From an uncultured virus (IMG/VR IMGVR_UViG_2510065032_000001) (Duplodnaviria > Heunggongvirae > Uroviricota > Caudoviricetes), in IMG/VR virus record IMGVR_UViG_2510065032_000001: a stretch of DNA of 64,000 nucleotides. The stretch is one strand, 5' to 3'. The translations under genes and the position numbers were made by a program. Position 1 is the stretch's first letter, and each line of letters opens with the position of its first letter. The notes beneath the pieces are model-generated. The model was not told where the DNA came from and ran no database searches. It saw only the letters and a list, made by a program, of their open reading frames with translations. Shown here one piece after another: positions 3,703-50,280 of this stretch.

Positions 3703-4802
3703 GGCTGCGGCTGGTCGTCAAGGCCCTGGGGCGGGGCAAGCCCCGCGCCCACCAGCCGGGCTACCACCCGGCCACCGACAAGCTGGGCAGGCGCTACTGG
3801 GCGCCCGCCCCCCGGCCCGCCCCNNNNNNNNNNNNNNNNNNNNNNNNNNNNNNNNNNNNNNNNNNNNNNNNNNNNNNNNNNNNNNNNNNNNNNNNNNNNN
3901 NNNNNNNNNNNNNNNNNNNNNNNCCCCCGACCGACGCCGAGCCCGAGGCGCAGACCTTCCGCCTCGACGAGCTGGTGGCGCTGCTGCGCGGCAGCCAGCC
4001 CGCCGGGGACCGGGCCGGGAGCCAGGCCGGGGACCAGGTGGCGGTGCACCGCCGGGTCACGGTGCAGGTCAGCGGCAAGGCCCAGGAGAACCTCGAGCGC
4101 ATCCTGGGCCGGGTGCCCAGCGCCCCCGAGCTGATCCGCCTGATGGGGCTCACGCCCTCCGAGCCCGCCACGCTCTACGTGGGCGCCGACGGGGACACGG
4201 TGACCTTCGCCCTCAAGGACCACCCCCACGTGCTCATCCAGGGGCGCGTGCTCTACCTCGACGGCGACGAGCCGGTGCTCGAGCACAGCCACCTCCGGCT
4301 GGACGAGGCCGCCCCCCAGGGCTACGGCTCGAGGCTCTTCGCCCGCGCGGTGGCGACGGCCCACGCCCTGGGCATCCGGCGCATCGAGACCCTGGCCCAG
4401 CGCGCCGACGACGCCGAGCCGCCCTACATCGGCTACTACGTGTGGCCGCTGCTGGGCTACGACGGCGAGCTGCCGGAGTACCTGCGCGAGCGCCTGGCCG
4501 CCGCCGGGTTCGCCAAGGGCACCCTGGGCGAGGTGATGGCCGACCCCGCGGCCAGGGAGTGGTGGAAGCGCCACGGCGCCAGCGTCCACTGCGCCTTCGA
4601 CGTGGCCGACCCCGCGCGGCGGCGCCACCTGTACCGCTACCTCGAGGCCAAGGGCTACCTCGAGGGGCTCGACCGCACCACCCAGCTCACCCTCGCCAAG
4701 GCCGCGCCGGGCCTGCGCTTCGAGGGGGCCGAGGAGCTGCCGCTTTCGGGCGACGAGCTGGCGGTCCTCGAGGCTTTGTGGGGGAGGAAACCCCGCCCCT
4801 GA
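3699..4802 (+). CDS. GNAT-like acetyltransferase (polyvalent-protein type); spans N gap
   Basis: ATGA overlap with previous stop; PQGYGSRLF...GIRRIETLA...GYYVWPLLGYD resembles GNAT motifs; N-terminal LVVKA; frame across the gap unverified. Confidence 0.6.
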   Translation: MRLRLVVKALGRGKPRAHQPGYHPATDKLGRRYWAPAPRPAXXXXXXXXXXXXXXXXXXXXXXXXXXXXXXXXXXPPTDAEPEAQTFRLDELVALLRGSQPAGDRAGSQAGDQVAVHRRVTVQVSGKAQENLERILGRVPSAPELIRLMGLTPSEPATLYVGADGDTVTFALKDHPHVLIQGRVLYLDGDEPVLEHSHLRLDEAAPQGYGSRLFARAVATAHALGIRRIETLAQRADDAEPPYIGYYVWPLLGYDGELPEYLRERLAAAGFAKGTLGEVMADPAAREWWKRHGASVHCAFDVADPARRRHLYRYLEAKGYLEGLDRTTQLTLAKAAPGLRFEGAEELPLSGDELAVLEALWGRKPRP

Positions 4803-4822
4803 CCCCTCGCCGCCCCCACAGT
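4800..4822 (+). promoter_or_regulatory. Putative late promoter (leaderless)
   Basis: TGACCC-N11-CACAGT, ATG 7 nt later (4830). Confidence 0.75.
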
Positions 4823-4829
4823 GGGGCTC

Positions 4830-7800
4830 ATGGGCCTTCGGCTCCCCCTCCACCCCCGCCTCTACCACCGCGAGGCGCTTCGCTTCGCCCGCGAGCGGCG
4901 CCTGCCCCCCGGCGACCACCTGGTCTGCGTGCGCCCCCTAGCCCCGCTGGTGGGGCTCTTCCGCAAGAGCTACTGGAAGGACGACCCCAACGTCCGCTGG
5001 ATCACCCTGCACCCCCACGGCGACGAGCACTACGTAAGGGTGCCCATCCGGGTCAACGCCGACGGCACCGCGCACGTCATCGGCGGGGGGAAGGGGCTGA
5101 GGGGGCTCAAGCTCGACCGGCTCAAGGGCCCCGAGGAGTGGGGCAAGGGCAAGAAGGCCAAGCCCAAGGACAAGCCCGAGGGCCAGGACAAGCCCAAGGG
5201 CGAGCACGACCGCCAGCTCGAGGAGAACGCCGCCCAGCTCTCCGCCGCCCTCAGCGCGCAGCTCGCTGAGCGCCGACGGCGCCAGATCGAAGCCGCCGCG
5301 CGGCTGGGGCTGGCGGGCTGGGACGACCCCACGGTGGGCAAGCTGGCCGATCCTGGGGGCGACGAGGCGACCCGGAAGGAGTACCTGGCCCGCGCCGCGC
5401 GCGCCTTGGGGATCGACCCCGCCGCCGTGGACGCGGCCCCCCTCAAGGGCGGGGCCGGGATGGTGCGCGCCGCCGACCTGCGCAAGGTGGCCTCGGGGCT
5501 CCGGCGCATCGAGGGCGGCCTGCTGCGCGAGCTGGCCCACAACCACGAGCTGCGCCAGGAGGTCATCGGGGAGCAGCCCGTCGGCGCCGAACACGCCGTG
5601 GACACCCGGCCCTCGGTGGGCCTGGGCTTCCGGCGCGCCACCCGCCGCATGGCCGAGGAGCGGGGGCTCGACCGCGCCCAGGTCAAGCGCCAGGCCCGCG
5701 AGGTGTTCAACGAGCGCGTGGCCCACCTGATGGAGTCCGACCCCGAGAAGGCCGCGCGGGTGGTCAACGCCGCCGAGACCGCGCGGGCCATGCACGACGT
5801 GGCGCGGGTGCTGCGCGAGCAGGGGGGCAGCGTGCAGGTGGACAGCGAGCTCGACCCCGCCGCCCTCAAGGAGCGGGCCGAGGCGGTCAGGGAGTTTCTG
5901 AAGGCCGCGCAGGAGGCCAAGCTCCTCGAGGCCCAGCTCCGCGAGCTCGACCCCCGGCGCCAGCGCGACCCCGAGCGGCTGGCGAAGGCCCTCAAGGCCG
6001 CCAGCGTCCCCGCCATGCGGGTGGACGCCCACGTGCTCGACGACGAGGATTTCATCGCGCAGCTCGAGGCCGACGTGGGCGAGCTCGCCAAGGCCGACCT
6101 CACCAAGCACTTCCTGGACAAGGTGGAGGCGGCGGGCGGGGAGGGGGGGATCGAGGCCGCGCGCGCCAAGATGCACGGCGCCCACGCCCACGGCGCCCAC
6201 GCCCACCTGCAAAGCGCGCTGATGGTGGCGGGGGGGATGGGCATGGACCGCATGGTGGCCGAGGTGCTGGGGCTGGAGGCCGCGGCCCAGATCGCCGCCC
6301 GCGCCATCCTCGCCGCCGCCGACCCCGAGGAGCTGGAGGCGGTGCGCGAGGGCTTGCAGCGCTACCACGACGAGGAGAGCGTGAAGCTGATCCGCGAGGC
6401 CACCGAGCGGGCGGAGCAGGCCGAGGCGGGGGCCGCCGCCATCGAGCTGCCCGACATCTCCGACGCCGCCAGCCTCGCCGCCGCCCAGGAGCTCAACGCC
6501 CTCAGGAAGGGGATGCTCGAGGAGGCCCTGCACCACCTGGGCACCGCGCTGGGCCAGCTCGAGGCCGGGGCCGCGCTCAACCTGGCCCTGCGGCAGGCCC
6601 CGCGCGGCGACCTGCGCCTGGAGTTCGGCAAGACCCCCACCGACAAGGTGCTGTGGGGCCTGGGGGCGCTGGGGCTGGAGAAGGACAAGGACTTTTCCAT
6701 CGAGCGCGACCCCGACACCAACGCGCTGGGCGTGACCCTCTCCGAGGCCGCCGTGTCGCGCCTGGTCAGCCGCCCCAGCGCGCAGGAGGCCATCCTGCAA
6801 AACCACCTCGAGGCCATCAAGCGCGGCGACCTGGACGAGGAGGACTGGCTGCCCGCGGGCTTCGTGTCCTACCCGCTCAGCCTGCACAACGACCCCGCGC
6901 GGCCCAAGCCCTTCGCCGCCCCGCCCGGCTTCGCCCAGGGCCGCCCGGTGGCCGAGGCGCTGGGGGAGTACGTGGCCTCGAGGCTGGCCGACGGCTGGAA
7001 GCCCTCCGACATCCTCGCTGAGGTCGGCAGCGTGGATTTCGTCATCCAGCACGTGCCCGAAGCCCAGCAGGAAGCCTACGCCGACGCGCTGGAGGAGCTG
7101 TTCCCCACCACCGACGCCAAGGGCGAGCTGCGCAACGTGGACGCCGACCCCGAGCTGCGCGCGCGCTTCGAGGCGATGGCGCGGGAGTACGTGGGGTCGA
7201 AGCACCCCGGCGAGGCCGACCTGCACAGCCAGAGCATCGACCCCGACGCCCAGGAGACCCGCCGCGCCGCCTTCGCCGCGCTGATGCAAGACCCCCGCAC
7301 CCAGGCGGCGTTCAAGCCCGTCGGGGAGCTGGGCGACGCCGACCAGCGGGCCCTGCGCAACTACTTCTACACCGAAATCGCCCAGGTGGACCCCAAGAGC
7401 GGCAAGGACCGGGCGGCGTATGAGGCGGCCCTGAAGGAGCTGGGCCCCGAGCCCCAGAAGATGAGCGTCAACCTCTTCGGGGACGAGGACATCAGCCCCG
7501 AGTGGGAGCAGTGGAACCGCCGCCGCCAGGAGATCGTGGAGCAGTTCGCCGGGCCGAGCGCGTGGGCCGAGTTCGTCAGCGGGATGCGGGGGCTGGACAA
7601 GGCGTACCGGGCGGTGCAGGAGCACATGCGCTCGGCCTTCGCCCAGCGCTTCCAGCGCTACCACGCCAACCTCACCGGCAAGCCCCTGCGCCTGGGGAAG
7701 CAGGCCATCCCCCTGGGGGAGCGCTTCAAGGCCGCCACCGACCCCGAGGAGCGCCGCAAGCTGCTCGAGCAGGAGCAGGCGCAGATGGCCGCCCTGCGCG

Positions 7801-9710
7801 ACCGGCGGGCCGGGAAGTTCGCCGCCGAGGGCGAGGGGGCGGTGAAGGAAAAGCTCAACCGCGCCCTCGAGATGAAGGAGAAGCTGCGCCAGGCCCAGGG
7901 CGCGCTGTTCATGGGGCTGGGGGCGCAGGGCTTCGAGGGCAAGCGGGGCATCGAGCTCAACGACCCCTTCCGGGAGCGCCTGACGCTGGGCCAGCGCGCC
8001 GAGGGGGAAATCGCCGCGATCCTGCCCTACCTCACCCACTCCACCGACCCCAACTCCCAGGGGGTGAGGCTGCGGCCGGGGCTGAGCATGGGGGCGGGGA
8101 CCAAGTTCGTGCGCCAGCAGCGGGCCATCAAGTTCGCGGTCGCCGCCAAGAAGACCTACCAGGCCCTCGGGATGGGGAGCGGCAAGACGGCCATCCAGAT
8201 CGGCACCTTCACCGAGCTGCACGCCCGCGGCAAGGCCAGGCGGGGGCTGTTCGTGGTGCCGAGCGTGGTGCGCAACCAGTTCGGGGAGGAGATGGCGCGC
8301 TTCACCGAGCCGGGGCGCTACAAGTTCCACGCCGCCGACGCCCCTTTCGAGGAGCGCCTGGCGGCCTATCGCGACCCCCACACCCACATGGTGGTCACCA
8401 CCCACCAGACCTTCCGTGACGACCTGGTGCGGCTGATGGCCGAGCACCAGGGGGTGGGGGCGGGCGAGCTCGAGGCCCGCTTCGCCGCCGCCCGCCCCCG
8501 CGAGCGCCGCCGGATGCTGCGCGAGGCCCTCGAGCACCACGGGGTGGCCGACCTGCTGGACTACCTCACCATCGACGAGGGCCACAACCTCTCCAACCGC
8601 GACGGCAAGCCCGACGCGCTGATGGCGATGGTGGCCGACGCTGCCCTGGCCGAGAGTCGGCACGCGATGATGGCCTCGGGCACCCCGGCCAAGAACGACG
8701 AGAGCGAAGTTTTCGACATCCTCAGCAAGCTCGACCCCGAGCGCTGGGGCGAGCGCAAGGAGGAGTTCAAGCGCAACTACGGGGTGTCCCTGCCCGTCGC
8801 CCAGGACGCCTTCAAGCGGGCGGCGGGGCGCTACATCTACGCCGCGAGCGTGGGCAGCGGGGTGGCGCGCCGGGAGGTGTGGGGGCGCGAGGGCGAGGGC
8901 GGGGTGCAGGCCCCCCTCGAGCTGCACCCCGAGCAGCGCAAGGCCCTCGAGCAGGTCAACCAAGCCTACCAGAGGGCCCGCGCCGCCCAGCGCACGGGCG
9001 GGGTGGACGTGGAGGCCCTGCGCACCCTCTCCCCCTCCTCCTTCGCGGGCAAGCCCCCTGAGGAGCACGAGGCCATCGCGCGCAAGCTCCAGCAGAACCT
9101 GGGCACGCTGCGCTTCGCCGCCCAGAGCCGCGTCATCGACGCCGCCCCCGCCGCGCACAACGCCAAGGTCCAGCACGTGCTGGCCCTGGCCGAGGCCAAG
9201 CGCCGCGCCGGGCACCCCGGCGTGGTGTTCGCCCACTCCCTCGAGGCCGTCGAGCAGATCAGCGCCGCGCTCAAGGCCGCGGGGCACCGGGTGGAGGTGG
9301 TCACGGGCGCCGACTCCAGCGAGCAGAAAGCCGCCAAGCGCCAGAAGTTCCACCCCGACTCGGGGGAGCCCCAGGCCGACATCCTGGTGATGAGCGACGC
9401 GGGGGCGGTGGGCATGAACCTCCAGCGGGGCCGCTGGCTCGCCAACTACGACCTGCCCCTGACCCACGCCACCCACGCCCAGCGCAACGCCCGCATCGAC
9501 CGCATCGGGCAGACCCAGGACGTGGAGATACACAACCTCGTCACCGACACCAAGTTCGACCGCGACGCCGTGGCCCGCCTCCAGCGCAAGAGCCTGCTGC
9601 AACAGGTCTTCGAGGGCGACTGGGAAAACCTCGACGACAGCGGCATGGCCCGCTACATCGCCCTGGCCCGCGCCGCGCGCGCCAAGACCCCCGAGGAGCT
9701 GGCGGCGTAG
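4830..9710 (+). CDS. Large polyvalent protein with C-terminal SNF2/SF2 helicase (DarB-like helicase)
   Basis: Walker A GMGSGKT, DEGH, SGTP, SDAGAVGMNLQ, QRNARIDRIGQ; start chosen from promoter spacing. Confidence 0.85.
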   Translation: MGLRLPLHPRLYHREALRFARERRLPPGDHLVCVRPLAPLVGLFRKSYWKDDPNVRWITLHPHGDEHYVRVPIRVNADGTAHVIGGGKGLRGLKLDRLKGPEEWGKGKKAKPKDKPEGQDKPKGEHDRQLEENAAQLSAALSAQLAERRRRQIEAAARLGLAGWDDPTVGKLADPGGDEATRKEYLARAARALGIDPAAVDAAPLKGGAGMVRAADLRKVASGLRRIEGGLLRELAHNHELRQEVIGEQPVGAEHAVDTRPSVGLGFRRATRRMAEERGLDRAQVKRQAREVFNERVAHLMESDPEKAARVVNAAETARAMHDVARVLREQGGSVQVDSELDPAALKERAEAVREFLKAAQEAKLLEAQLRELDPRRQRDPERLAKALKAASVPAMRVDAHVLDDEDFIAQLEADVGELAKADLTKHFLDKVEAAGGEGGIEAARAKMHGAHAHGAHAHLQSALMVAGGMGMDRMVAEVLGLEAAAQIAARAILAAADPEELEAVREGLQRYHDEESVKLIREATERAEQAEAGAAAIELPDISDAASLAAAQELNALRKGMLEEALHHLGTALGQLEAGAALNLALRQAPRGDLRLEFGKTPTDKVLWGLGALGLEKDKDFSIERDPDTNALGVTLSEAAVSRLVSRPSAQEAILQNHLEAIKRGDLDEEDWLPAGFVSYPLSLHNDPARPKPFAAPPGFAQGRPVAEALGEYVASRLADGWKPSDILAEVGSVDFVIQHVPEAQQEAYADALEELFPTTDAKGELRNVDADPELRARFEAMAREYVGSKHPGEADLHSQSIDPDAQETRRAAFAALMQDPRTQAAFKPVGELGDADQRALRNYFYTEIAQVDPKSGKDRAAYEAALKELGPEPQKMSVNLFGDEDISPEWEQWNRRRQEIVEQFAGPSAWAEFVSGMRGLDKAYRAVQEHMRSAFAQRFQRYHANLTGKPLRLGKQAIPLGERFKAATDPEERRKLLEQEQAQMAALRDRRAGKFAAEGEGAVKEKLNRALEMKEKLRQAQGALFMGLGAQGFEGKRGIELNDPFRERLTLGQRAEGEIAAILPYLTHSTDPNSQGVRLRPGLSMGAGTKFVRQQRAIKFAVAAKKTYQALGMGSGKTAIQIGTFTELHARGKARRGLFVVPSVVRNQFGEEMARFTEPGRYKFHAADAPFEERLAAYRDPHTHMVVTTHQTFRDDLVRLMAEHQGVGAGELEARFAAARPRERRRMLREALEHHGVADLLDYLTIDEGHNLSNRDGKPDALMAMVADAALAESRHAMMASGTPAKNDESEVFDILSKLDPERWGERKEEFKRNYGVSLPVAQDAFKRAAGRYIYAASVGSGVARREVWGREGEGGVQAPLELHPEQRKALEQVNQAYQRARAAQRTGGVDVEALRTLSPSSFAGKPPEEHEAIARKLQQNLGTLRFAAQSRVIDAAPAAHNAKVQHVLALAEAKRRAGHPGVVFAHSLEAVEQISAALKAAGHRVEVVTGADSSEQKAAKRQKFHPDSGEPQADILVMSDAGAVGMNLQRGRWLANYDLPLTHATHAQRNARIDRIGQTQDVEIHNLVTDTKFDRDAVARLQRKSLLQQVFEGDWENLDDSGMARYIALARAARAKTPEELAA

Positions 9711-9733
9711 GGCGCGGCCCGCCGCCCGGCCCC

Positions 9734-9756
9734 TGACCCCTGGCCGCGCCCACACT
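9734..9756 (+). promoter_or_regulatory. Putative late promoter (leaderless)
   Basis: TGACCC-N11-CACACT, ATG 6 nt later. Confidence 0.78.
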
Positions 9757-9999: not shown

Positions 10000-10827
10000 G
10001 TGTGGGCGCTGCTCTGCGTCTCCAAGGGCTACCTGCGGGTCTGGAAGACCCGCAGGGACGGGGTGCGTCAGCGGTACGTCGTGGCGGTGGACGGCGATTT
10101 CAGCCCGATGAAGCTCGGCCCCGACGAGATGCCCCCCTCCGACGAGATCAAGGACGACCGCCTGCTGCGCTACTCCCACCCCTGGGAGCTGGTGGGCCGT
10201 ATCCGCAGGGCGCTCGAGGCCAGGGTGCCGCTGCCGGGGCGCGCGGGCATCCCCTCCGTCAAGCTGGCCTCCAGCCACGAGGAGATGGACGCCCTCGTAG
10301 AGGCCGCCTACGGGGTGCGCCCGGACAGGAGGCTTCGGGGGTTCAGCCACGAGGGCCGGATATTTTTGGGGCCCGAGGTCTACGACGACCTCGAGCACCG
10401 CAACGTCGCCCTGCGGGCCAGGGCCTTCAAGACCATCGCGCACGAGTGGTGGCACGCCAAGCGCGTATCGCCCAGCCGGGAGATGCCCCAATGGATCGAG
10501 GAGGGCCTGGCCGACCACTACGCCGCGCGCGCGGCCAAGGCCCTGCTGGGCACCCCCTACGCGGAGGGGACGTACTTCCATGCCCAGGTCGCGGTGGAGC
10601 ACCTGCTGACCCTGCTGGGCGGGGGGGACTTCGAGGCGGGGTACGAGCAGATCAAGCTCACCCGCTCCGACCCCCACCCCCGCAGGACGCTGCGCGCGCT
10701 GTTCCAGAGCTGGGGGCTCGGGCGGGAGGCGGTGGGGCTGCTGCTGAGCGGCGAGCACGAGATGAGCCAACTCCTGTGGGCGGAGGATGCGCGGAGGATT
10801 TTCGCCGCCCTGACGCGGGAGGGATAA
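10000..10827 (+). CDS. Zincin-like metallopeptidase
   Basis: IAHEWWH plus downstream WIEEGLAD; N-terminal CVSKG and KTRRDGVRQRYVV hairpin. Confidence 0.7.
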   Translation: MWALLCVSKGYLRVWKTRRDGVRQRYVVAVDGDFSPMKLGPDEMPPSDEIKDDRLLRYSHPWELVGRIRRALEARVPLPGRAGIPSVKLASSHEEMDALVEAAYGVRPDRRLRGFSHEGRIFLGPEVYDDLEHRNVALRARAFKTIAHEWWHAKRVSPSREMPQWIEEGLADHYAARAAKALLGTPYAEGTYFHAQVAVEHLLTLLGGGDFEAGYEQIKLTRSDPHPRRTLRALFQSWGLGREAVGLLLSGEHEMSQLLWAEDARRIFAALTREG

Positions 10828-10830
10828 AAA

Positions 10831-10851
10831 TGCTAGAATGCCCGGAGGAGG
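10831..10851 (+). promoter_or_regulatory. Extended -10 promoter and SD
   Basis: TGcTAGAAT followed by GGAGGAGG before GTG 10858. Confidence 0.5.
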
Positions 10852-10857
10852 TGCCGC

Positions 10858-11112
10858 GTGCTATACACCGAGATGATCCGACGCTCGTACAGCCCGGAGT
10901 TCGAGAGGATGCGCGACTGGCTGCTGAGCGCCTGCGGCGACCTTGAAAAGGCCAACCGCGCGGTACAGGAGCTCAAGACCAACCCCCACCTCTTCGACGG
11001 CATCCCCCCCGAAGAGCGGGGGGCCCTCGCGACGGTGATCCACGACCTCTACCGCCGCCGCGCCGAGTACCTGCGCGAGGCGGCTGAGGCGCGACAGCCC
11101 GCGCCCCGCTAG
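10858..11112 (+). CDS. Hypothetical protein (84 aa)
   Basis: Strong SD, followed by terminator. Confidence 0.65.
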   Translation: MLYTEMIRRSYSPEFERMRDWLLSACGDLEKANRAVQELKTNPHLFDGIPPEERGALATVIHDLYRRRAEYLREAAEARQPAPR

Positions 11113-11131
11113 CGCCGCCCTTCGCGCCCCG

Positions 11132-11156
11132 GCCCGCCCCCTGAGGGCGGGCTTTT
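11132..11156 (+). terminator. Intrinsic terminator
   Basis: GCCCGCCC/GGGCGGGC stem + TTTT. Confidence 0.7.
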
Positions 11157-11170
11157 CGCCGCCCCCCTAC

Positions 11171-11206
11171 TTGACTAATACTCAAGCTTGTCCTAGCTTT
11201 AGGACA
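11171..11206 (+). promoter_or_regulatory. SigmaA-type promoter with overlapping operator TGTCC-N8-GGACA
   Basis: TTGACT-17-TAGCTT; TGTCCTA gctt TAGGACA at 11189-11206. Confidence 0.75.
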
Positions 11207-11220
11207 GGAGGTATTGAAAC

Positions 11221-11523
11221 ATGCCCCAAAGCACCTGGCACAAAAGCACCTGGGTCTTCCTCAGCGTCGGCGTGGAGCCCGAACACGCCGCGCGCGCGCT
11301 GGAGATCGGGCGCGCCCTCGAGCCCGCGCTCGACTGGCGGGCGTCCCTCGAGTTCTACCGCCGCCGCCAGCAGGTGGTCCAAGCCTGGCTGCCGCCCACC
11401 GAGCGCGTGGCCGAGCGCGTGGCCGAGCACGCCGACCTCAAGGCCCGCTACCTGGCCGCCCTCGAGCACGAGGGCATCGCCTACGCCGACGGCACGCTGC
11501 CGCTGGCCCGGAGGAGCCTATGA
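11221..11523 (+). CDS. Hypothetical protein
   Basis: SD AGGAGG; GC3-rich frame. Confidence 0.7.
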   Translation: MPQSTWHKSTWVFLSVGVEPEHAARALEIGRALEPALDWRASLEFYRRRQQVVQAWLPPTERVAERVAEHADLKARYLAALEHEGIAYADGTLPLARRSL

Positions 11524-12143: not shown

Positions 12144-12173
12144 CGCCCCCCGAACCCCGGAAAAGGAGACGCC

Positions 12174-12885: not shown

Positions 12886-12892
12886 GCCGTTC

Positions 12893-12915
12893 TGACCCCT
12901 CGCACGCCCGACCGT
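12893..12915 (+). promoter_or_regulatory. Putative late promoter (leaderless)
   Basis: TGACCC-N11-GACCGT, ATG 6 nt later. Confidence 0.78.
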
Positions 12916-16900: not shown

Positions 16901-17376
16901 GGATGGGCGCCAAAGCGGTGCTGGACAACCTCGACCGCGACATGCGCTACCTGGCCGCCGCCGCCGGGCGCCCCATCCGCTACACCCCGCCCGGCGGCGA
17001 GGGCATGAGCCACTTCCGGGCCACCGCCAAGTTGATGGGCGATTACTGGTCCCGCCCCCACGAGCTGTTCGCCCGCGCGTTCGAGGCGTGGGTGCACGAC
17101 CGGCTGGCGGAGCGCGGCTGGGTGAACACCTACCTGGTCAAGGGCGTGGACGAGGAGGCGGTGCGGCGCTGGGGGAGGGAGGCGGGCCTGCTGGAGGAGG
17201 AGGGCGGCGTGACCTCGCTCTACCCGCTGGGCGAGGAGCGCAAGCGCACCAACGCGGCCTTCGACCGCCTGCTCTACGCCCTCGCGGGCAGCGGGGCCCT
17301 GGCTAAGGCCCTGGGGCTCTGGGGCTCCGGGGCTCCGGGGCGCGCGGCCTCTGACCCCCCGGCGCCCACAGCATGA
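13905..17376 (+). CDS. Large polyvalent protein (LPD5/LPD1-type, HExxH); apparent single-base frameshift near 15336
   Basis: GTG overlap; coding frame moves to the 15370..17376 frame inside a Pro-rich linker; DVGEKIGMARKD, GVEYGNW, AHYEP...INLTK...SLAHEWGH, YWSRPHELFARAFE, YPLGEER. Confidence 0.75.
15219..15278 (+). repeat. 60-bp direct repeat copy 2
   Basis: Identical to 1333-1392. Confidence 0.9.
17352..17374 (+). promoter_or_regulatory. Putative late promoter (leaderless)
   Basis: TGACCC-N11-CAGCAT, ATG 6 nt later. Confidence 0.78.
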
Positions 17377-17380
17377 AGCC

Positions 17381-18370: not shown

Positions 18371-18383
18371 TCCCCTCCAGGGC

Positions 18384-18428
18384 GCAAAAATCGCCACCCG
18401 CCCCACTCAAAGCGGGCGGTTTTTTTGC
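18384..18428. terminator. Intrinsic, probably bidirectional, terminator
   Basis: A-tract, GC stem, T7 tract. Confidence 0.7.
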
Positions 18429-18432
18429 ACTC

Positions 18433-18455
18433 TGACCCCTCAGCCCCCTGAGCCT
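18433..18455 (+). promoter_or_regulatory. Putative late promoter (leadered, SD GAGGAGG)
   Basis: TGACCC-N11-GAGCCT. Confidence 0.78.
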
Positions 18456-18475
18456 CGAGGTGTGAGGAGGGAACT

Positions 18476-19144: not shown

Positions 19145-19175
19145 GGCTCCGCCGGGGCTTTGAAAGGAGAAAAGC

Positions 19176-20669: not shown

Positions 20670-20688
20670 GCTTGAAAGCTTTCTGGTC

Positions 20689-20718
20689 CTCCCTGGCAGA
20701 CGCCAGGGAGTTTGCTTT
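20689..20718 (+). terminator. Intrinsic terminator after capsid gene
   Basis: CTCCCTGGC agac GCCAGGGAG + T-rich tail. Confidence 0.65.
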
Positions 20719-20748
20719 GGGCCGACGCCCGACGCCCGGCTACCCCTC

Positions 20749-20776
20749 TGACCCCTGCTGTCCTGGAGATTGGACA
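20749..20776 (+). promoter_or_regulatory. Late promoter motif overlapped by TGTCC-N8-GGACA operator
   Basis: TGACCC-N11-GAGATT (20749-20771); TGTCC tggagatt GGACA (20759-20776). Confidence 0.7.
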
Positions 20777-21365: not shown

Positions 21366-21408
21366 ACGCCCGCCACGGGCCACCGCAGAGCCGGGGGTTC
21401 CCCGGCTC

Positions 21409-21431
21409 TGACCCTTTGCCGCGCCCACCCT
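21409..21431 (+). promoter_or_regulatory. Putative late promoter (leaderless)
   Basis: TGACCC-N11-CACCCT, ATG 6 nt later. Confidence 0.78.
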
Positions 21432-26189: not shown

Positions 26190-26524
26190 GCTGGAGGAAA
26201 GCCGTCGTGCTGACGCTGGGCCGGGGCCAGGTCCACCTGGCCTACCTGCGCGCGGGGCAAGGCGCCGAGCAGACCCTCGAGCTGGCGCTCGCCCCCTTCA
26301 CCCCTGACCTACAGCGCAAGAGCAGGCTGGGCCTGAAGGTCTACCGCGAAGAGCTCGACCGCCCTGGGACGGCGGTGCTGCGCTTCACCGGCAGCGCCAG
26401 CGTCCGGGCGCTGCGCGAGCGGCTGGAAGTCCTCGAGCGGCTGCTCGAAGCCCTCGAGCGCCAGCCGGGGGCGACGCCCGCCGGGCCCGGCCCCGGCCCT
26501 GACCCCGGCCCGCCCCGAAACTAG
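26186..26524 (+). CDS. Hypothetical protein
   Basis: GTGA overlap. Confidence 0.6.
   Translation: MSWRKAVVLTLGRGQVHLAYLRAGQGAEQTLELALAPFTPDLQRKSRLGLKVYREELDRPGTAVLRFTGSASVRALRERLEVLERLLEALERQPGATPAGPGPGPDPGPPRN
26500..26522 (+). promoter_or_regulatory. Putative late promoter (leaderless), inside upstream ORF end
   Basis: TGACCC-N11-GAAACT, ATG 6 nt later. Confidence 0.75.
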
Positions 26525-28335: not shown

Positions 28336-28339
28336 GCTC

Positions 28340-28362
28340 TGACCCCCGCCCCCGCCCACACT
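28340..28362 (+). promoter_or_regulatory. Putative late promoter (leaderless)
   Basis: TGACCC-N11-CACACT, ATG 28369. Confidence 0.8.
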
Positions 28363-28631: not shown

Positions 28632-28660
28632 CAAAGGCCCTTCGGGGCCTTTGATTTTTT
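28632..28660 (+). terminator. Intrinsic terminator
   Basis: CAAAGGCCC ttcg GGGCCTTTG + T tract. Confidence 0.85.
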
Positions 28661-28664
28661 ACTC

Positions 28665-28687
28665 TGACCCCTCCTTGCCCTGAGCGT
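28665..28687 (+). promoter_or_regulatory. Putative late promoter (leadered, SD AGGAGG)
   Basis: TGACCC-N11-GAGCGT. Confidence 0.78.
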
Positions 28688-30903: not shown

Positions 30904-30916
30904 CCCCTCCGACCTC

Positions 30917-30953
30917 TGACCCCTTGAAGCCTCCAGGATGAGCCTGGAGGCTT
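30917..30953 (+). promoter_or_regulatory. Late promoter with 11-bp hairpin covering -10 and SD
   Basis: TGACCC-N11-CAGGAT; AAGCCTCCAGG atgag CCTGGAGGCTT. Confidence 0.7.
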
Positions 30954-34891: not shown

Positions 34892-34909
34892 CCGCCCCGC
34901 GACCCCCGG

Positions 34910-35389: not shown

Positions 35390-35426
35390 GGCCCCACCTT
35401 AGCAGATGGGGAGGGGCCGGGGCGTC

Positions 35427-35449
35427 TGACCCCCCCGGCCCGCCACACT
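35427..35449 (+). promoter_or_regulatory. Putative late promoter (leaderless)
   Basis: TGACCC-N11-CACACT, GTG 7 nt later. Confidence 0.78.
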
Positions 35450-35456
35450 GAGGCCC

Positions 35457-36926: not shown

Positions 36927-37936
36927 AAGGACTCCGCGGCATCCACCTGGCCCAGGTCATCAGCGTCCACCCCAGCGCCCCGGCCACCACCCGGCCCGAC
37001 TCGCCCCCGCCCTACGCGGGCACCCTCAGCGTGAAGCTGGGGGACTACTCCACCCAGGGCGGCACCGACGAGGCGCCCATGTTCCGGGTGCGGGTGCTGC
37101 GCGAGCGGGCCCAGCCCGCCGCCGGGGTCTACCGGCTGCCCCAGGAGGGCGACTGGGGCCTGGTGGCCTTCTTCGCCAACGACGGGGCCAGCGGGGTGTG
37201 GCTGGGCAGCCTCGACTCCATCACCCGCAACCTGATCCCCGAGGAGCTGTGGGCCCTCGACGAGGCCGCCGAGCTGCACCACTTCCCCTCCGACCGCTAC
37301 GCCATCTACCACGGCGACGGGATGGAGGAGCACGCCTGGCCCGACGGCACGCTGCTCAAGATCACCCCCCGCAAGGACGGGCAGCCGAGCAACCCCACCT
37401 ACCGCGCGCGCCGCTCGGCCCGCAAGGCCCGGCGCAAGAGCGGGGAGGGCTGGGCCACCGAGCGCCAGCCCTACTCCCCCCACCCCCAGCCCCCGGTGGA
37501 CGTCGTGCTGAGCCACGCCTCGGGCGCCGAGGTGCGGCTGTCAGCCGACGGCTCGCTGTTCCTCTCCACCCCCGCGGGCCACTCCCTACGGCTGTTCGAC
37601 GACACCGAGCAGGGCCGCGACCCCGCGACCGGCCAGGTCACGACCCCCCACGACCCCGCCCGCGCCCGGAGCGCCCTGGTCCTCGAGGCCGCCGGGGGCG
37701 CCTCCATCCGGCTGGAGGAGAACCCCGCCCCCCGCGTGGTCATCGACCCCGGCCCCGGCACCGTGCAAATCGCCGGGGGGCCGATGGGGGCGGCCCGGGT
37801 GGGCGACCGGGTGAGCGTGACCATCCCCGCGGGCGCGGTGCTGGTGAACACCCCCGCAGGCCCCGGCACCAACCCCGCGCCCATCGTGGCCGAGGGGGTG
37901 ATCGTGGAGGGCAGCGCCAAGGTGACGGTGGGCTGA
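36923..37936 (+). CDS. Baseplate spike (gpV-like)
   Basis: OB-fold-like LPQEGDWGLVAF...WLGS; C-terminal AARVGD...IVEGSAKVTVG. Confidence 0.7.
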   Translation: MKGLRGIHLAQVISVHPSAPATTRPDSPPPYAGTLSVKLGDYSTQGGTDEAPMFRVRVLRERAQPAAGVYRLPQEGDWGLVAFFANDGASGVWLGSLDSITRNLIPEELWALDEAAELHHFPSDRYAIYHGDGMEEHAWPDGTLLKITPRKDGQPSNPTYRARRSARKARRKSGEGWATERQPYSPHPQPPVDVVLSHASGAEVRLSADGSLFLSTPAGHSLRLFDDTEQGRDPATGQVTTPHDPARARSALVLEAAGGASIRLEENPAPRVVIDPGPGTVQIAGGPMGAARVGDRVSVTIPAGAVLVNTPAGPGTNPAPIVAEGVIVEGSAKVTVG

Positions 37937-37956
37937 CCCCTGGCCGGGCTCAGGCT
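37934..37956 (+). promoter_or_regulatory. Putative late promoter (leaderless); TGA doubles as upstream stop
   Basis: TGACCC-N11-CAGGCT, ATG 37963. Confidence 0.75.
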
Positions 37957-39221: not shown

Positions 39222-39817
39222 ACTACGCGAGCTTGGAGGTACAGCAGGGCGACAGCATCCACCGCCTGGCCCAGGCCCTTCTGGGCGACTTCCGCCGCTG
39301 GCGGGAGCTGGCCGAGCTCAACGGGCTCGACCACCCCTACGTCGTGGACGACCCCGCCCCCTGGCGGGCCGAGGGCAGGCGGGTGCTGGGGCCGGGGGAC
39401 ACCCTCTACTACCCTTCCGACGCCCTGCCCAGCCCCCGCCGCCGGGTCGGGGCCGACCTCGAGGCCCAGACCTACGGCACCGACCTGGCGATGCAGGGGG
39501 GCCATCTGGTGTGGATCGGCGGCAGCCTGAGCATGGTCTCGGGCCTGGACAACCTCAAGCAGGCCCTCACCCACCGGCTCAACACCCCCCAGGGCAACCT
39601 GCCCGCCCACCCCGGCTACGGCCACGCCCTCAAGCAGTACCTGGGCCGGGTGGGCGGGGGCGATGAGGCCGCGCTGGTCCGCCTCGAGGCCCAGCGGGTG
39701 CTCAACCAGGACCGCCGGATAGCCGCCAGCTCCGCGGCGGTGGAGTTTGCCGACTCGGCCGCGCACATCCGCGCCGAGGTCATCCCTCTGACCCCTGGCA
39801 ACCGCGACACTGAGTAG
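39218..39817 (+). CDS. LysM-like + gp25/gpW-like baseplate wedge protein
   Basis: VQQGDSI..LA...LGD..RW.ELAELN; SGLDNLKQAL..RL.TPQG...HPGYG. Confidence 0.75.
   Translation: MNYASLEVQQGDSIHRLAQALLGDFRRWRELAELNGLDHPYVVDDPAPWRAEGRRVLGPGDTLYYPSDALPSPRRRVGADLEAQTYGTDLAMQGGHLVWIGGSLSMVSGLDNLKQALTHRLNTPQGNLPAHPGYGHALKQYLGRVGGGDEAALVRLEAQRVLNQDRRIAASSAAVEFADSAAHIRAEVIPLTPGNRDTE
39789..39811 (+). promoter_or_regulatory. Putative late promoter (leaderless)
   Basis: TGACCC-N11-GACACT, ATG 7 nt later. Confidence 0.75.
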
Positions 39818-48035: not shown

Positions 48036-48054
48036 CCCTTAGCCCGCCCCCGTC

Positions 48055-48077
48055 TGACCCCTGGGGGGCGCGACCCT
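48055..48077 (+). promoter_or_regulatory. Putative late promoter (leaderless)
   Basis: TGACCC-N11-GACCCT, ATG 6 nt later. Confidence 0.78.
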
Positions 48078-49010: not shown

Positions 49011-49043
49011 CCCACCGGCCCGGGCGCCGGGGCGCCAGGGCTC

Positions 49044-49066
49044 TGACCCCTGGCGCCCCCCACCCT
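49044..49066 (+). promoter_or_regulatory. Putative late promoter (leaderless) of lysis cassette
   Basis: TGACCC-N11-CACCCT, ATG 49073. Confidence 0.78.
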
Positions 49067-49072
49067 GGGGGC

Positions 49073-49540
49073 ATGAACCGCGAGGCCCCCCACAGCCCGC
49101 TCGAGGCGTTCGCGCAGCGCGCCCTCGAGCTGTTGATCGCCTGGTGGCCCGCGAAGGCGGTGGGGGGGCTGCTCCTCACCCTCTTCGGGCCCTGGAACGA
49201 ACAGTACACCACCCTGCTGGCCCTCAACGCCCTCGACTTCGCGCTGGGCGTGGCGGTGGGGGTCAAGACCGGGCGGCTGCGCTCGTACGCCGCCAGCCAC
49301 GGCCTGTTCTACAAGACCTTGCAGTGGGTGGCGGTGCTGGTGGCCTACCGCATCGACAAGGGGCTGGGGGTGAGCCTAGTCCACACCCTGATGGTCGGCG
49401 GCCTGATCGTGGCCGAGGCCATCAGCGTGCTGGAGAACCTGCAAATCCTCTCGGGCAACCGCATCCCCGTGCTGGGGAGAATCCTGGGCGACCTCAAGGA
49501 CAAGCAGAACAAGTACCTCAAGGGGGGCGATAAGCAGTGA
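49073..49540 (+). CDS. Holin (phage holin 4-like)
   Basis: TM segments; LDF..GV...S....GL..K, EAISVLEN...IP. Confidence 0.8.
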   Translation: MNREAPHSPLEAFAQRALELLIAWWPAKAVGGLLLTLFGPWNEQYTTLLALNALDFALGVAVGVKTGRLRSYAASHGLFYKTLQWVAVLVAYRIDKGLGVSLVHTLMVGGLIVAEAISVLENLQILSGNRIPVLGRILGDLKDKQNKYLKGGDKQ

Positions 49541-50238
49541 GCGTGCAGCTCGTCTTCGCCTACCCCATCCGCCCCTGGAAGGACGTGAAGCTCGACGCCG
49601 CGTTCCTCGACCCCGCCTACCGCGCGCGCTTCGGCGCCCACCACCCCGGCGTGGACTGGAACCTGCGCAGCGGGGGCGACAGCGACCTGGGCAAGCCCGT
49701 CTACAGCCTCTTCCCCGGCACCGTGGTCGGGGTGGGCTGGTACAGGGTGTGGGGCAACAACGTGCTGGTGAGGGCGGAGGACTGGGTGCGCGACCTGGTG
49801 GCCGCGCGGATGAGGCGCAGCATCAAGAGCCTCGAGCTGCTCTACGCCCACCTGCACCACGTGGACGTGGAGCAGGGCCAGACCGTGCAGGCGGGGGAGT
49901 GCCTGGGCAGCATCGGCAAGGGCGACCCCGCCGCGGGGATGGCCGCCCACCTGCACTTCGAGGCCCGCACCCTGAGCCTGCCCATCAACGACTGGCCCGG
50001 CGGCAGCCCCGCCGCCGAGCGGCGCATCCGGGACACCCGGCTCAACCCCCACGAGCTCATCACCTGCCTGACCTACGGCGACCGGCCCAACCTCCAGCCC
50101 TCCGGCCAGGTCGTCGCCCCCGCGGGGCTGTTCACCTTCGAGGGGGCGGTGATGGACAACCGCGCGGGACTGGTGCTCAACCGCGCGGGCACCAAGCTCT
50201 GGCTGCGCTGCGAGAAGGACGAGCCGAGGGGCAACTAG
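49537..50238 (+). CDS. Endolysin, M23 peptidase
   Basis: HPGVDWN, YAHL, AHLHFE. Confidence 0.85.
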   Translation: MSVQLVFAYPIRPWKDVKLDAAFLDPAYRARFGAHHPGVDWNLRSGGDSDLGKPVYSLFPGTVVGVGWYRVWGNNVLVRAEDWVRDLVAARMRRSIKSLELLYAHLHHVDVEQGQTVQAGECLGSIGKGDPAAGMAAHLHFEARTLSLPINDWPGGSPAAERRIRDTRLNPHELITCLTYGDRPNLQPSGQVVAPAGLFTFEGAVMDNRAGLVLNRAGTKLWLRCEKDEPRGN

Positions 50239-50257
50239 AGGGGCGAGGGGCGGGCTC

Positions 50258-50280
50258 TGACCCCTGCCCGCGGCGACACT
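50258..50280 (+). promoter_or_regulatory. Putative late promoter (leadered, SD GGAGG)
   Basis: TGACCC-N11-GACACT. Confidence 0.75.

Follow-up and report, generated by a model that had tools for sequence, protein, structure and literature searches.

The locus considered here raises the question of how the late genes of a phage that is also a plasmid are switched on, and what reads the short two-part element that stands ahead of them. The window, a stretch of 64,000 nucleotides, forms part of contig C9 (83,151 bp) of a 4.69-Mb assembly, and this 83-kb replicon is a phage-plasmid with a contractile tail, from a heat-loving host of the Thermus family. Its plasmid features are ParA and replication genes (Pfam/PHROGs), and its capsid protein has 60% identity with those of the Thermus phages phiMa/Cumys and 44% with those of the Lalka phages, including Lalka27a. 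A preliminary description proposed that the window carries 17 copies of a late promoter, CTGACCC-N11-[C/G]ANNNT, silent to the host holoenzyme until a phage activator or sigma binds. Established here are the motif itself, its confinement to the phage, where its copies stand and the fact that relatives conserve it.

The motif and its distribution

A pattern search of the window returns 17 matches and no more, each of them on the + strand, at the coordinates originally given for them (T of TGACCC at 4800 to 50258). The invariant spacing likewise holds, with 17 nt from the box T to the hexamer start in 17/17. This frequency is not that of chance, since 100 dinucleotide-preserving shuffles give a mean of 0.30 copies in the window and a maximum of two. 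TGACCC alone is mildly enriched (71 observed vs 42 expected in the window) and the signal therefore resides in the two-part arrangement. A scan of the whole replicon and host chromosome gives 33 matches to the full pattern across the 4.69-Mb assembly, of which 20 lie on C9 (240 per Mb) as against 13 in the other 4.6 Mb, at 2.6–4.3 per Mb on the large contigs; as a control, the reversed pattern matches seven times in the assembly. Beyond the window, C9 has three further copies, each ahead of a gene on the same strand:

80491, + strand: extra motif copy
64722, − strand: extra motif copy
70333, − strand: extra motif copy

Alignment of the 20 C9 sites shows that the conserved portion is longer than first proposed: c-T-CTGACCCC-T, nine variable bases, [C/G]A[c/g][a/c]cT and then a G/A-rich stretch. 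In this last stretch, the discriminator, there is G at −6 in 15/20, a purine at −5 in 18/20 and at −4 in 20/20, and G at −3 in 15/20. The hexamer does indeed keep −11A and −7T and never −12T (absent in 20/20), although at 72% G+C this absence would arise by chance in some 5% of cases and is weak taken alone. Nor is it an artefact of the search pattern, because a scan with any base allowed at hexamer position 1 adds no exact-box site at spacing 11. TG at −15/−14 is absent from the C9 late sites, and in the relatives G169 and Cumys TANNNT is used at some sites.

The relatives share the box, each with its own fixed spacing. The distance from GACCC to the −11 A is 12 nt at 16 C9 sites, at 15 in the G169 prophage and at nine in Cumys; four Lalka27a sites have 11 nt, and nine in the G001 element have 15 nt. 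Neighbouring spacings hold 0–3 sites, and shuffled sequence is expected to hold 0.4–0.8 sites at spacing 12. Moreover, orthologues of the genes driven by the C9 promoters have a preceding site in 12/17 cases in G169, 6/14 in Cumys, 4/13 in Lalka27a and 4/11 in G001.

Gene context and start codons

As had been claimed, every window site (17/17) lies directly ahead of + strand virion, injected-cargo, tail or lysis genes. The sites and the neighbouring intrinsic terminators are as follows, the late promoters being predicted from sequence and their start points deduced:

4799..4822, +: late promoter, box CTGACCCC, hexamer CACAGT, leaderless ATG 4830 (7 nt); drives a 1626-aa virion-type helicase (Lvh-like; Pfam SNF2/Helicase_C), end 9710
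9733..9756, +: late promoter, hexamer CACACT, leaderless ATG 9763 (6 nt); drives a 77-aa gene conserved in G169 and Cumys
12892..12915, +: late promoter, hexamer GACCGT, leaderless ATG 12922; drives a 328-aa gene, its Cumys homologue annotated as head maturation protease
17351..17374, +: late promoter, hexamer CAGCAT, leaderless ATG 17381; drives a 329-aa protein without assigned function
18394..18419, no strand assigned: intrinsic terminator, G+C-rich hairpin and T runs, 13 nt ahead of the 18432 promoter
18432..18455, +: late promoter, hexamer GAGCCT, ~14-nt leader with GAGGAGGG, ATG 18476; drives a 222-aa scaffold-like gene, then the major capsid gene (19191–20669)
20689..20710, +: intrinsic terminator, 3' of the capsid gene, 38 nt ahead of the 20748 promoter
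20748..20771, +: late promoter past the capsid-gene terminator, hexamer GAGATT, Shine-Dalgarno leader, ATG 20790
21408..21431, +: late promoter, box CTGACCCT, hexamer CACCCT, leaderless ATG 21438; drives a 267-aa virion protein
26499..26522, +: late promoter, hexamer GAAACT, leaderless ATG 26529; drives a 294-aa protein conserved in all relatives
28339..28362, +: late promoter, hexamer CACACT, leaderless ATG 28369 (6 nt); drives a small gene ahead of the sheath gene
28632..28653, +: intrinsic terminator, 11 nt ahead of the sheath promoter 28664
28664..28687, +: late promoter, hexamer GAGCGT, Shine-Dalgarno leader, ATG 28704; drives the tail sheath gene
30916..30939, +: late promoter, hexamer CAGGAT, Shine-Dalgarno leader, ATG 30958; drives a tail-assembly-chaperone-like gene, then tape-measure
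35426..35449, +: late promoter, hexamer CACACT, leaderless GTG 35457 (7 nt); drives a 489-aa tail protein
37933..37956, +: late promoter, hexamer CAGGCT, leaderless ATG 37963; drives a baseplate-region gene
39788..39811, +: late promoter, hexamer GACACT, leaderless ATG 39819 (7 nt); drives the Baseplate_J gene
48054..48077, +: late promoter, hexamer GACCCT, leaderless ATG 48084; drives a 308-aa protein, 3' of the fibre genes
49043..49066, +: late promoter, hexamer CACCCT, leaderless ATG 49073; drives a holin, then an M23 peptidase (endolysin-like)
50257..50280, +: late promoter, hexamer GACACT, Shine-Dalgarno leader, GTG 50296; drives a holin-like 113-aa gene

The 1626-aa helicase has 49–62% identity with its large counterparts in Lalka27a, Cumys and the G169 prophage, and the orthologue of the 328-aa gene at 12922 is preceded by a site in 4/4 relatives. 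At 37933, the TGA of the box doubles as the stop codon of the upstream gene, and at 20748 a CTGTCC-N8-GGACAA palindrome overlaps the hexamer.

The accessory clusters are, as first noticed, free of the motif, with 0 sites in 10000–12846, 23233–26524 and 50684–62283. They have canonical TTGnnn-N16-18-TAnnnT promoters with an overlapping palindromic operator; such promoters serve the accessory, replication and maintenance genes, and form a second promoter class. A consensus scan finds no canonical promoter in 17000–36999, and the operator palindrome lies on only 1/20 late sites (20748). The placement of the motif directly ahead of such genes supports the view that the sites behave as late-gene promoters. 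The RNA data found are assembled sludge metatranscriptome contigs only, which contain parts of the scaffold, capsid, sheath and tube genes, and from which, with DNA possibly included, start and strand are not readable.

An in-frame ATG or GTG lies 6–7 nt past the hexamer in 14/20 C9 sites, such that the mRNA should be leaderless, a layout overlooked in the preliminary description and new here. The remaining 6/20 have short leaders with a GGAGG-like Shine-Dalgarno sequence, 9–14 nt in length but ~36 nt at 70333. Since the start codons sit 6–7 nt past the hexamer, the geometry originally put forward appears to be right, with the box at about −30 to −23 and the hexamer at −12 to −7. Independently of the box, 16 predicted C9 gene starts have −11 A and −7 T at 6–7 nt, and 12 of these 16 have the box at −30/−31. 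The start geometry is common to host and phage late sites, the host having 436 occurrences of TANNNT-N6-ATG and 378 of TANNNT-N7-ATG vs 127–256 at the other spacings tried. The full signal of box, hexamer and start codon is, in contrast, phage-only: TGACCC-N12-A...T-N6-7-ATG occurs 13 times in C9 vs 0 in the other eight contigs, and a start codon lies 6–7 nt downstream in 0/13 chromosomal matches to CTGACCC-N11-[C/G]ANNNT.

Proposed reading of the late sites

Start points, late timing, use of host sigmaA and a phage factor are what we infer: the sites are probably late promoters at which host sigmaA reads the hexamer and discriminator, the box being left to a phage factor. The host primary sigma would contact the flipped-out A (−11) and T (−7) of the hexamer, together with the G-rich stretch just downstream; in Thermus aquaticus, GGGA vs CCCT at −6 to −3 shifts sigmaA holoenzyme binding ~100–150-fold (PMC3526302). 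With a hexamer that lacks T at −12 and no −35 box at 17-bp distance, the host enzyme alone should bind poorly. A phage protein made earlier in infection would then read the invariant CTGACCCC box at −30 to −23 and either recruit or re-aim the polymerase. Transcription would begin 6–7 nt past the hexamer, that is, at the A or G of the start codon in 14/20 sites, giving leaderless mRNA; in the leadered 6/20 the leader would carry a ribosome-binding site, and the predicted starts at those in the window are ~18462, 20778, 28694, 30946 and 50287. Dependence on a phage factor is plausible by analogy with the late class of Lalka27a, which has the same layout and for which its authors make a matching inference, and the late timing is transferred from Lalka27a at 44% capsid identity.

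The four sigma-70-family genes of the assembly all lie on contig C3, and scans of 95 C9 proteins with Pfam and PHROGs reveal neither a sigma factor nor an RNA polymerase. The likeliest candidate for the phage factor, though a weak one, is a 281-aa protein encoded beyond the window (C9 74101–74946, − strand). With virion, packaging and replication proteins set aside, no other protein was found to be common to C9, G169, Cumys, Lalka27a and G001 (orthologues in the Cumys gp45 region and Lalka27a gp9), and its gene lies in a leftward early operon with a canonical operator-overlapped promoter upstream. Its predicted structure is confident (pLDDT 86.8), and two parts of the model are weakly like helix-turn-helix/winged-helix DNA-binding domains (best Z 4.8, all matches Z <5); Foldseek returns nothing for the model at E ≤ 0.001, and all Pfam HTH matches of the family lie above E 0.001. 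Its conservation in the lineage fails to separate it from any other core gene.

The strong discriminator dependence of sigmaA binding in T. aquaticus (PMC3526302) would also suit an unlikely alternative, in which host sigmaA polymerase suffices unaided, −11A/−7T and the G-rich discriminator being enough, the box being a −35-like or UP-like helper, and the late timing coming from a repressor, genome copy number or read-through without an activator. The box core TGAC is the core of TTGACA, with TTGACCCC at some sites in relatives, and its fit to the −35 consensus makes direct reading by sigma region 4 conceivable; moreover, the early-promoter palindrome over late promoter 20748 hints at repressor control. 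That operator is, however, on 1/20 late sites only, and the box–hexamer distance is 12 bp, not 17. Host leaderless TTGAC + TANNNT pairs are mainly 17 bp apart (6 cases vs 0–2 at the other spacings tried), the phage geometry is nearly unused among host leaderless promoters, and 4.6 Mb of host DNA contain no copy of the full signal. The Lalka27a authors also class the equivalents as late and distinct from host-type promoters.

A spacing fixed within each phage but different across lineages (11, 12, 15) could instead be the geometry of a highly diverged phage sigma-like protein that replaces sigmaA and reads both box and hexamer, and a protein-language-model search places the 281-aa protein near a viral Sigma70_r4 cluster, at a score of only 0.75 that makes it a lead, with a Sigma70_r3 match at E 0.085 in one orthologue. 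This is quite improbable, in that 0/95 C9 proteins have a sigma domain past any threshold, the 281-aa family, set against the three small sigma factors of the host in profile–profile comparison, reaches a probability of just 0.43%, and the fold search of its model shows no likeness to sigma domain 2. The G-rich discriminator points rather to a primary sigma with region 1.2 (PMC3526302), and the Lalka27a authors likewise report no sigma. That the motif is no promoter, but a repressor or nucleoid-protein site silencing late genes in the plasmid state, or a translation or RNA-processing signal, seems very remote. A plasmid-like prophage (ParA, replication genes) must hold its late genes off; yet the hexamer-to-start-codon distance is that of host leaderless genes, three sites lie directly 3' of terminators, no further candidate promoters turn up in the 20-kb structural region, an Rfam search of the window matched zero families, and RNA 5' ends are mapped at homologous Lalka27a sites.

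Comparison with known systems

The promoter class already has a described close relative, overlooked in the preliminary description. According to the preprint, Lalka27a has a late class, defined by time-resolved RNA data, of 16 promoters that carry TAGGGT and, without exception, a C at −25; half of them have RNA 5' ends 6 nt downstream. Most of its transcripts are reported to lack a leader, and neither a sigma nor a polymerase of the phage is described; the authors infer that the phage encodes a specificity factor (bioRxiv 10.64898/2026.04.20.719267, 2026). C9 and Lalka27a have sheath, baseplate, portal, terminase, large virion helicase and DarB-like genes in common. They also share many promoters across the late genes, an A-11/T-7 hexamer 6 nt before the start, mostly leaderless mRNAs (predicted in C9), C at −25, no −35 box and no recognisable sigma or polymerase. 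In Lalka27a, the near-invariant TAGGGT holds the information and a single upstream base is reported conserved, whereas in C9 the upstream 8–10 bases are invariant, the hexamer is a loose [C/G]ANNNT and TAGGGT occurs in 0/20; starts are predicted in C9 and in part RNA-mapped in Lalka27a. A degenerate box (CTGACCC, CCGACCC or CCTACCC) is nonetheless found at several Lalka27a sites, and the C9 box is 1 bp farther from the hexamer.

In T4 middle promoters, which work by MotA/AsiA sigma appropriation, a host-sigma −10 is combined with a phage box near −30 that replaces the −35, some 12 bp apart. C9 resembles them in its −10 and phage box at a short fixed distance and in the box-reading phage protein proposed here. 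The two differ in box sequence, which is unrelated, in box centre (~−26.5 vs −30 in T4) and in class, predicted to be late in C9 as against middle in T4; Pfam and PHROGs give no MotA or AsiA homologue among the C9 proteins. The gp39 protein of P23-45 favours extended −10 (TGn) promoters, unlike C9 with TG absent at −15/−14. The host family is nevertheless the same, and P23-45 gp39/gp76 control Thermus host RNA polymerase, a phage protein redirecting the sigmaA holoenzyme via its −35-reading part (PMC3950348, PMC5758890), much as may be proposed for C9. No gp39 homologue was seen in the C9 phage.

The likeness to Lpa-dependent promoters of P1 that was first suggested stands as a conceptual one. 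P1 late promoters consist of a −10 box and an Lpa element, an inverted repeat near −22, with no −35 box. The C9 box is asymmetric, with no inverted repeat, and farther upstream, and no Lpa-like protein is found by Pfam or PHROGs. In both phages, however, late promoters combine a −10 box with an upstream element peculiar to the phage, which stands in for a −35 box, and P1, like C9, is a plasmid-prophage myovirus with DarB-like virion proteins. Indeed, the Lalka authors also liken their own phages to P1 (bioRxiv 10.64898/2026.04.20.719267).

The two-part signal and its predicted leaderless layout

The preliminary description had reported 17 copies of a signal in which a CTGACCC box is followed, after 11 bases, by a [C/G]ANNNT hexamer, and a pattern search of the window recovers every one of them where it had been placed, all on the + strand. 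The observation is real and stronger than first stated. In 100 dinucleotide-preserving shuffles of the window the two-part pattern appears with a mean of 0.30 copies and a maximum of 2, and since TGACCC by itself is only 1.7-fold enriched (71 observed, 42 expected), it is the two-part arrangement that constitutes the signal. In the whole assembly (nine contigs, 4.69 Mb) there are 33 matches, 20 of which fall on C9, the 83,151-bp replicon whose bases 1-64000 are the window, giving 240 per Mb there as against 2.6-4.3 per Mb for the 13 matches elsewhere; the reversed pattern, taken as a control, occurs 7 times in the assembly. The reading of the motif as a phage rather than a host signal is borne out in host DNA, where a start codon at 6-7 nt is missing from all 13 chromosomal matches. 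The fuller pattern TGACCC-N12-A...T-N6-7-ATG is found 13 times in C9, and the other eight contigs have 0 copies. The pattern search places the C9 sites beyond the window as follows.

80491, + strand, putative late promoter site
64722, - strand, putative late promoter site
70333, - strand, putative late promoter site

Alignment of the 20 sites gives the consensus c-T-CTGACCCC-T, nine variable bases, [C/G]A[c/g][a/c]cT and then a purine-rich stretch. The hexamer begins with C in 11 sites and G in 9, such that the claimed absence of T at -12 holds throughout (0/20), while A at -11 and T at -7 are present in 20/20, both being fixed by the search pattern. The C at -25, 13 nt before the hexamer, is similarly invariant (20/20) but is part of the search pattern and so is not independent; the base at -24 is C in 20/20. 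The TGAC core of the box stands 12-13 bp ahead of the hexamer in 20/20 sites. Downstream, the discriminator has G at -6 in 15/20, a purine at -5 in 18/20 and at -4 in 20/20, and G at -3 in 15/20.

An in-frame ATG or GTG, as a predicted start, lies 6-7 nt past the hexamer at 14 of the 20 sites (12 of the 17 in the window), the spacing being 6 nt in 11 cases and 7 nt in 3. In the host, the combination of TANNNT and a following ATG peaks at spacings of 6 (436 occurrences) and 7 (378), with 127-256 at the other spacings tried. The usual arrangement for leaderless genes in this organism is, in other words, a hexamer that occupies -12 to -7 and a start codon on which transcription begins, and from this layout the box is placed at -30 to -23. 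In the six remaining sites the gap between hexamer and start codon is 15-20 nt (42 nt at 70333), with a GGAGG-like sequence between; the genes behind them are those of the scaffold and capsid, the sheath, a chaperone-like protein, a holin-like protein and the gene before the large terminase. The 18432 site is counted with these leadered sites because the GTG found 6 nt past its hexamer is out of frame with the gene. At two sites the gene caller picked an upstream GTG, where the promoter agrees better with in-frame ATGs, at 4830 and 28369. The picture is the same when the box is left out of the test: 16 C9 gene starts are predicted with A-11/T-7 at a distance of 6-7 nt, and the box is present at 12 of them. 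The motif can serve to mark late operons and true start codons in poorly annotated phages of this kind.

The replicon and its two predicted promoter classes

C9 has a G+C content of 72.2%, and the other large contigs have 67.6-69.3%. With a codon-usage model built from the long reading frames of C9 itself, 101 genes are called, among which the following are assigned in the window by Pfam and PHROGs.

1-3699, giant methyltransferase-bearing protein
about 4821-9710, SNF2-type helicase of 1629 aa (1626 aa with the corrected start)
about 19191-20669, major head protein
28704-30467, tail sheath
39819, Baseplate_J
49073-50637, two holin-like proteins and an M23 peptidase

Further matches in the window are to tube-like, tape-measure, baseplate and fibre-region proteins, and, beyond it, to portal, large terminase, SSB, beta-clamp, replication initiator, DnaC-like loader and ParA. 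The frame at the contig end (82810-83151) runs stop-free into the first frame of the window (1-3702), from which C9 is probably circular; the joined frames would encode a protein of ~1,350 aa with a methyltransferase domain, resembling the DarB-type virion proteins noted for Lalka phages. From the probable circularity and this gene content, C9 is to be read as a contractile-tailed phage maintained as a plasmid. The control genomes of the host's order and the family sizes in a whole-genome search fit the Thermus-Deinococcus group. The assembly contains four sigma-70-family genes, all of which are chromosomal, none being found on C9.

Some further features of the stretch can be recorded here. 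In 13908-17376 the frame with high third-position G+C switches at ~15300, within a proline-rich PEPxPAP repeat, between a ~470-aa frame (from ~13.9 kb) and a 668-aa LPD1-domain frame (15370-17376). Because the switch falls inside the repeat, a frameshift seems to have broken a single polyvalent protein into these two frames; it may reflect misassembly of the repeat, or else be a genuine or programmed shift. Two assembly gaps of 100 N each stand at 3824-3923 (inside the gene 3699-4802) and at 31947-32046 (before the tape-measure gene), and neither Rfam families nor tRNAs were found in the window.

With the gene functions in hand, the placement proposed in the preliminary description is upheld: the sites precede virion and lysis genes, and there are none in the accessory clusters at 10000-12846, 23233-26524 and 50684-62283. 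The replication and maintenance region of C9 is also free of box-type sites. These clusters and this region carry canonical promoters, such as those below, the -10 of which lies under a palindrome of the form TTGTCC-N8-GGACAA.

11199, canonical promoter TTGACT-N17-TAGCTT, -10 under the palindrome
52202, canonical promoter TTGCGT-N17-TATACT, -10 under the palindrome

In a consensus scan of 17000-36999, 0 canonical promoters were found where 0.5 were expected, and intrinsic terminators stand 11-38 nt ahead of the promoters at 18432, 20748 and 28664.

The palindrome is itself a second repeated signal, 20 bp long, with the general form (T/C/G)TGTCC-N8-GGACA(A/G/C), lying over the -10 of TTGnnn-N16-18-TAnnnT promoters; the operons behind these promoters have accessory, nucleotide-metabolism and replication functions. 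Probably, the maintenance repressor of the phage uses the palindrome as its operator.

11188-11207, palindrome copy
20758-20777, palindrome copy, overlapping the late promoter at 20748
23221-23240, palindrome copy
52191-52210, palindrome copy
55373-55392, palindrome copy
75726-75745, palindrome copy in C9 outside the window
near 67259 and 80227, half-sites in C9 outside the window

Between the tape-measure and tail genes lies a lone opposite-strand gene (34910-35389, - strand, 159 aa) that falls in no family and has a leaderless TAAGGT-N6-ATG start of its own, without a box. The gene resembles a moron whose expression would not depend on the late class.

Conservation among related phages and prophages

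The C9 capsid protein is 60% identical to those of the Thermus phages phiMa and Cumys and 44% identical to those of Lalka phages. Capsid peptide patterns retrieved no close relative from the viral and genome contig sets (viral_contigs and genome_contigs), whereas a protein-based whole-genome search did find relatives. Among them is a prophage in the genome G169, from another genus of the same family, which has 39 of the 101 C9 proteins in common (E <= 1e-5) with their order kept, the proteins being mostly 31-62% identical. Its orthologues stand behind the same layout, for example TTGACCCC-N10-TAGCCT-N6-ATG and CTGACCCC-N10-TAGGGT-N6-ATG. Across the whole genomes of relatives the original pattern gives scattered matches, the signal emerging in the prophage regions.

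A relaxed pattern was used for these relatives, namely [G/T]ACCC-Nk-A...T with a start codon following at 6-7 nt. In C9 it gives 16 sites at k=12, as against 0-3 at other k, and shuffled sequence gives 0.4-0.8 sites at k=12. The same spacing is seen in the G169 prophage (15 sites) and in Cumys (9 sites). The phage Lalka27a has k=11 (4 sites, with 0 at k=12), and G001, a plasmid-like element from another family, has k=15 (9 sites, on one strand, with the longer box GACCCCCCGCG). Moreover, sites often recur before orthologues of the promoter-driven genes of C9: 12/17 in G169, 6/14 in Cumys, 4/13 in Lalka27a and 4/11 in G001, with the prohead-protease-like gene preceded by a site in 4/4 relatives. 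Because the pattern was relaxed, chance may account for one or two of these. An invariant but lineage-specific spacing would fit a protein ruler which has co-evolved with its sites.

Parts of the stretch are also contained in nine public runs, of which three metatranscriptomes and one other, all in the form of assembled contigs, were compared with 17001-37000; no position at which molecules start emerged from the comparison. Assembled contigs from the three sludge metatranscriptomes are 95-100% identical to short pieces at 18474-21033, 28713-28870 and 30393-30639, touching the scaffold, capsid, sheath and tube genes and the gene at 20790, and 65% of the sampled words recur in a DNA-type run of a different study. 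These matches indicate that a close relative of the phage exists outside the source culture.

The proposed mechanism and known promoter classes

The preferred reading is that these are factor-dependent late promoters, used by host sigmaA together with a phage factor. Factors of the sigma-70 type flip out two bases, the -11 A and the -7 T. From -6 to -3, the G-rich stretch agrees with the GGGA element, which is reported to increase binding of the Thermus aquaticus sigmaA holoenzyme strongly, probably via region 1.2 (PMC3526302). Together, the hexamer and discriminator point to the host primary sigma, which would read both. T at -12 is missing from the sites (as it is from all 9 G001 sites), as are a -35 box at 17 bp and TG at -15/-14, such that the host enzyme would presumably need a helper protein, which would read the box.

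In the search for such a helper, tblastn of the C9 proteins against G169, Cumys and Lalka27a gave two common proteins outside the obvious virion and replication sets, of 245 and 281 aa. The 245-aa protein (C9 69530-70267) was dropped as a regulator, since it has a late promoter of its own and stands before the large terminase gene; it leans to a small terminase (Atlas score 0.80, a lead only). The other is as follows.

74101-74946 of C9 (L009:10104-10946), - strand, 281-aa protein, tentative box reader

Its gene belongs to a leftward operon that also encodes SSB and the clamp and is headed by a canonical promoter under an operator; in Cumys, the late genes begin directly after the homologue. 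Every relative of the phage that was compared carries the protein, among them Cumys (gp45, in a frame longer than annotated), Lalka27a (gp9) and, by profile, G001 and a further genome, G119; in these the gene is always on the same contig as the capsid gene. A homologue in another genome, G258, lies on a 24-kb contig of 57% G+C on which no other common genes and no motif were found. A word-index homology search returned the protein itself only, and an exhaustive HMMER search of 1.84 billion proteins gave a family of 23 representatives (E <= 0.001), with conserved RWxEW and RPRG motifs and four near-invariant C-terminal cysteines, CxC-X9-C-X11-C. The structure is confidently predicted (pLDDT 86.8, pTM 0.75) and has no clear fold match. 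Residues 175-238 are weakly like winged-helix DNA-binding domains (Cdc6/Orc1 Z 4.8, Mu repressor 4.1, BldC 3.9, Xis 3.8; 4.8 is the best Z in a wide structural search), residues 51-119 weakly resemble HTH regulators and residues 123-169 SH3/Tudor barrels. Foldseek gave no match at E <= 0.001, a profile search of PDB sequences a single match at E 1.3, Pfam sub-threshold HTH matches throughout, an Atlas search scores of 0.75-0.77 (leads only), and hhalign against the host's small sigma factors a probability of 0.43%. That this protein reads the box is, on these features, possible but rather doubtful.

A second candidate is a 76-aa HTH gene (80286-80516), just before the portal gene, with a variant site, TTGACCCC, as well as a canonical promoter under an operator. 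It is ranked weaker because tblastn found no homologue in G169, Cumys or Lalka27a, the end of the G169 prophage being close upstream of its own portal gene. Ahead of the 76-aa gene, the divergent control region (80172-80285) contains the variant sites CTGACTCC-N10-AATCCT and TTGACCCC-N10-ATAAGT, the latter with an ATG 6 nt on, and a canonical TTGCTT-N18-TATCAT promoter overlapped by a TTGTCC half-site.

Among known classes, the canonical sigmaA/sigma70 promoter can be set aside, there being no TTGACA-like box 16-18 bp before the hexamer in the 20 C9 sites, nor is the extended -10 represented, since at -15/-14 T is found in 1 and 2 of the 20 sites and C is dominant. The leaderless signal of the host is seen with TANNNT, whereas the C9 hexamers are without T at -12. 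ECF sigma factors use GGAAC-N16-17-CGTC, and sigma54 uses GG at -24 with GC at -12; across the 20 sites C stands at -24 in 20/20 and a CGTC-type -10 is absent. The late promoters of P1 that depend on Lpa have an inverted-repeat box near -22. The likeness to these, suggested in the preliminary description, is a conceptual one: the box CTGACCCC, which extends from -30 to -23, lacks a palindromic form, and PHROGs and Pfam give no Lpa-like match. Factor-dependent late promoters remain the best reading, which is strengthened by the leaderless geometry, the restriction to phage, the conservation across five elements and the experimental precedent of Lalka27a. The geometry matches that of T4 MotA/AsiA-type promoters, in which a box replaces the -35 ~12 bp before a sigma-type -10. 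The MotA box is unrelated in sequence, and MotA/AsiA homologues have no Pfam or PHROG match among 95 C9 proteins, a search which distant analogues would escape. In this regard, the box might be a -35-like element, with its TGAC core read by host sigma region 4, which a phage adaptor, the 281-aa protein, would move ~5 bp closer to the -10. This is improbable, although the shape of such an adaptor would explain the invariant distance of each lineage (11, 12 or 15 nt); if true, it would be a sigma-appropriation system in Thermus-Deinococcus phages, unrelated in sequence to MotA/AsiA and with a tunable ruler.

Under the preferred reading of host sigmaA with a phage factor, the motif becomes a handle for finding the late-transcription factor. 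The host of Cumys is Thermus thermophilus HB8, and Thermus RNA polymerase is a workhorse of transcription structural studies, so a box-reading factor could be tested and imaged directly. By text search no earlier description of the TGACCCC box was found among the papers listed, nor, in a search on Meiothermus and leaderless phage promoters, any paper on phage promoters; the 2024 paper describing Cumys and the Lalka phages is without promoter analysis.

The closest precedent is Lalka27a itself, studied by time-resolved RNA-seq (bioRxiv 10.64898/2026.04.20.719267). In that study, transcripts are mostly leaderless, RNA 5' ends lie six bases downstream for half of the late promoters, no phage sigma or polymerase is reported and the authors infer a phage factor that alters host polymerase specificity. 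The Lalka27a late promoters have an A-11/T-7 hexamer 6 nt before the start and precede virion and lysis genes, as do the sites of the related C9, where the layout matches and the starts are predicted only. The Lalka27a hexamer TAGGGT is found in 0/20 C9 sites but is present in G169 and Cumys. Moreover, the conserved C at -25 of Lalka27a falls inside the C9 box, and several Lalka27a sites show CTGACCC, CCGACCC or CCTACCC, 1 bp nearer the hexamer than in C9. On these two grounds the C9 promoters are of the same class, with the information shifted to an invariant box and a loose hexamer. The published logo hides an upstream box, at a fixed distance which differs between lineages, and a trade-off in information between this box and the -10 hexamer. 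The finding is a variant of a recently described promoter class and not a new kind of system; a class described once, in one Thermus phage, is now extended to phiMa/Cumys-like phages, one integrated prophage and two plasmid-like prophages, in two bacterial families.
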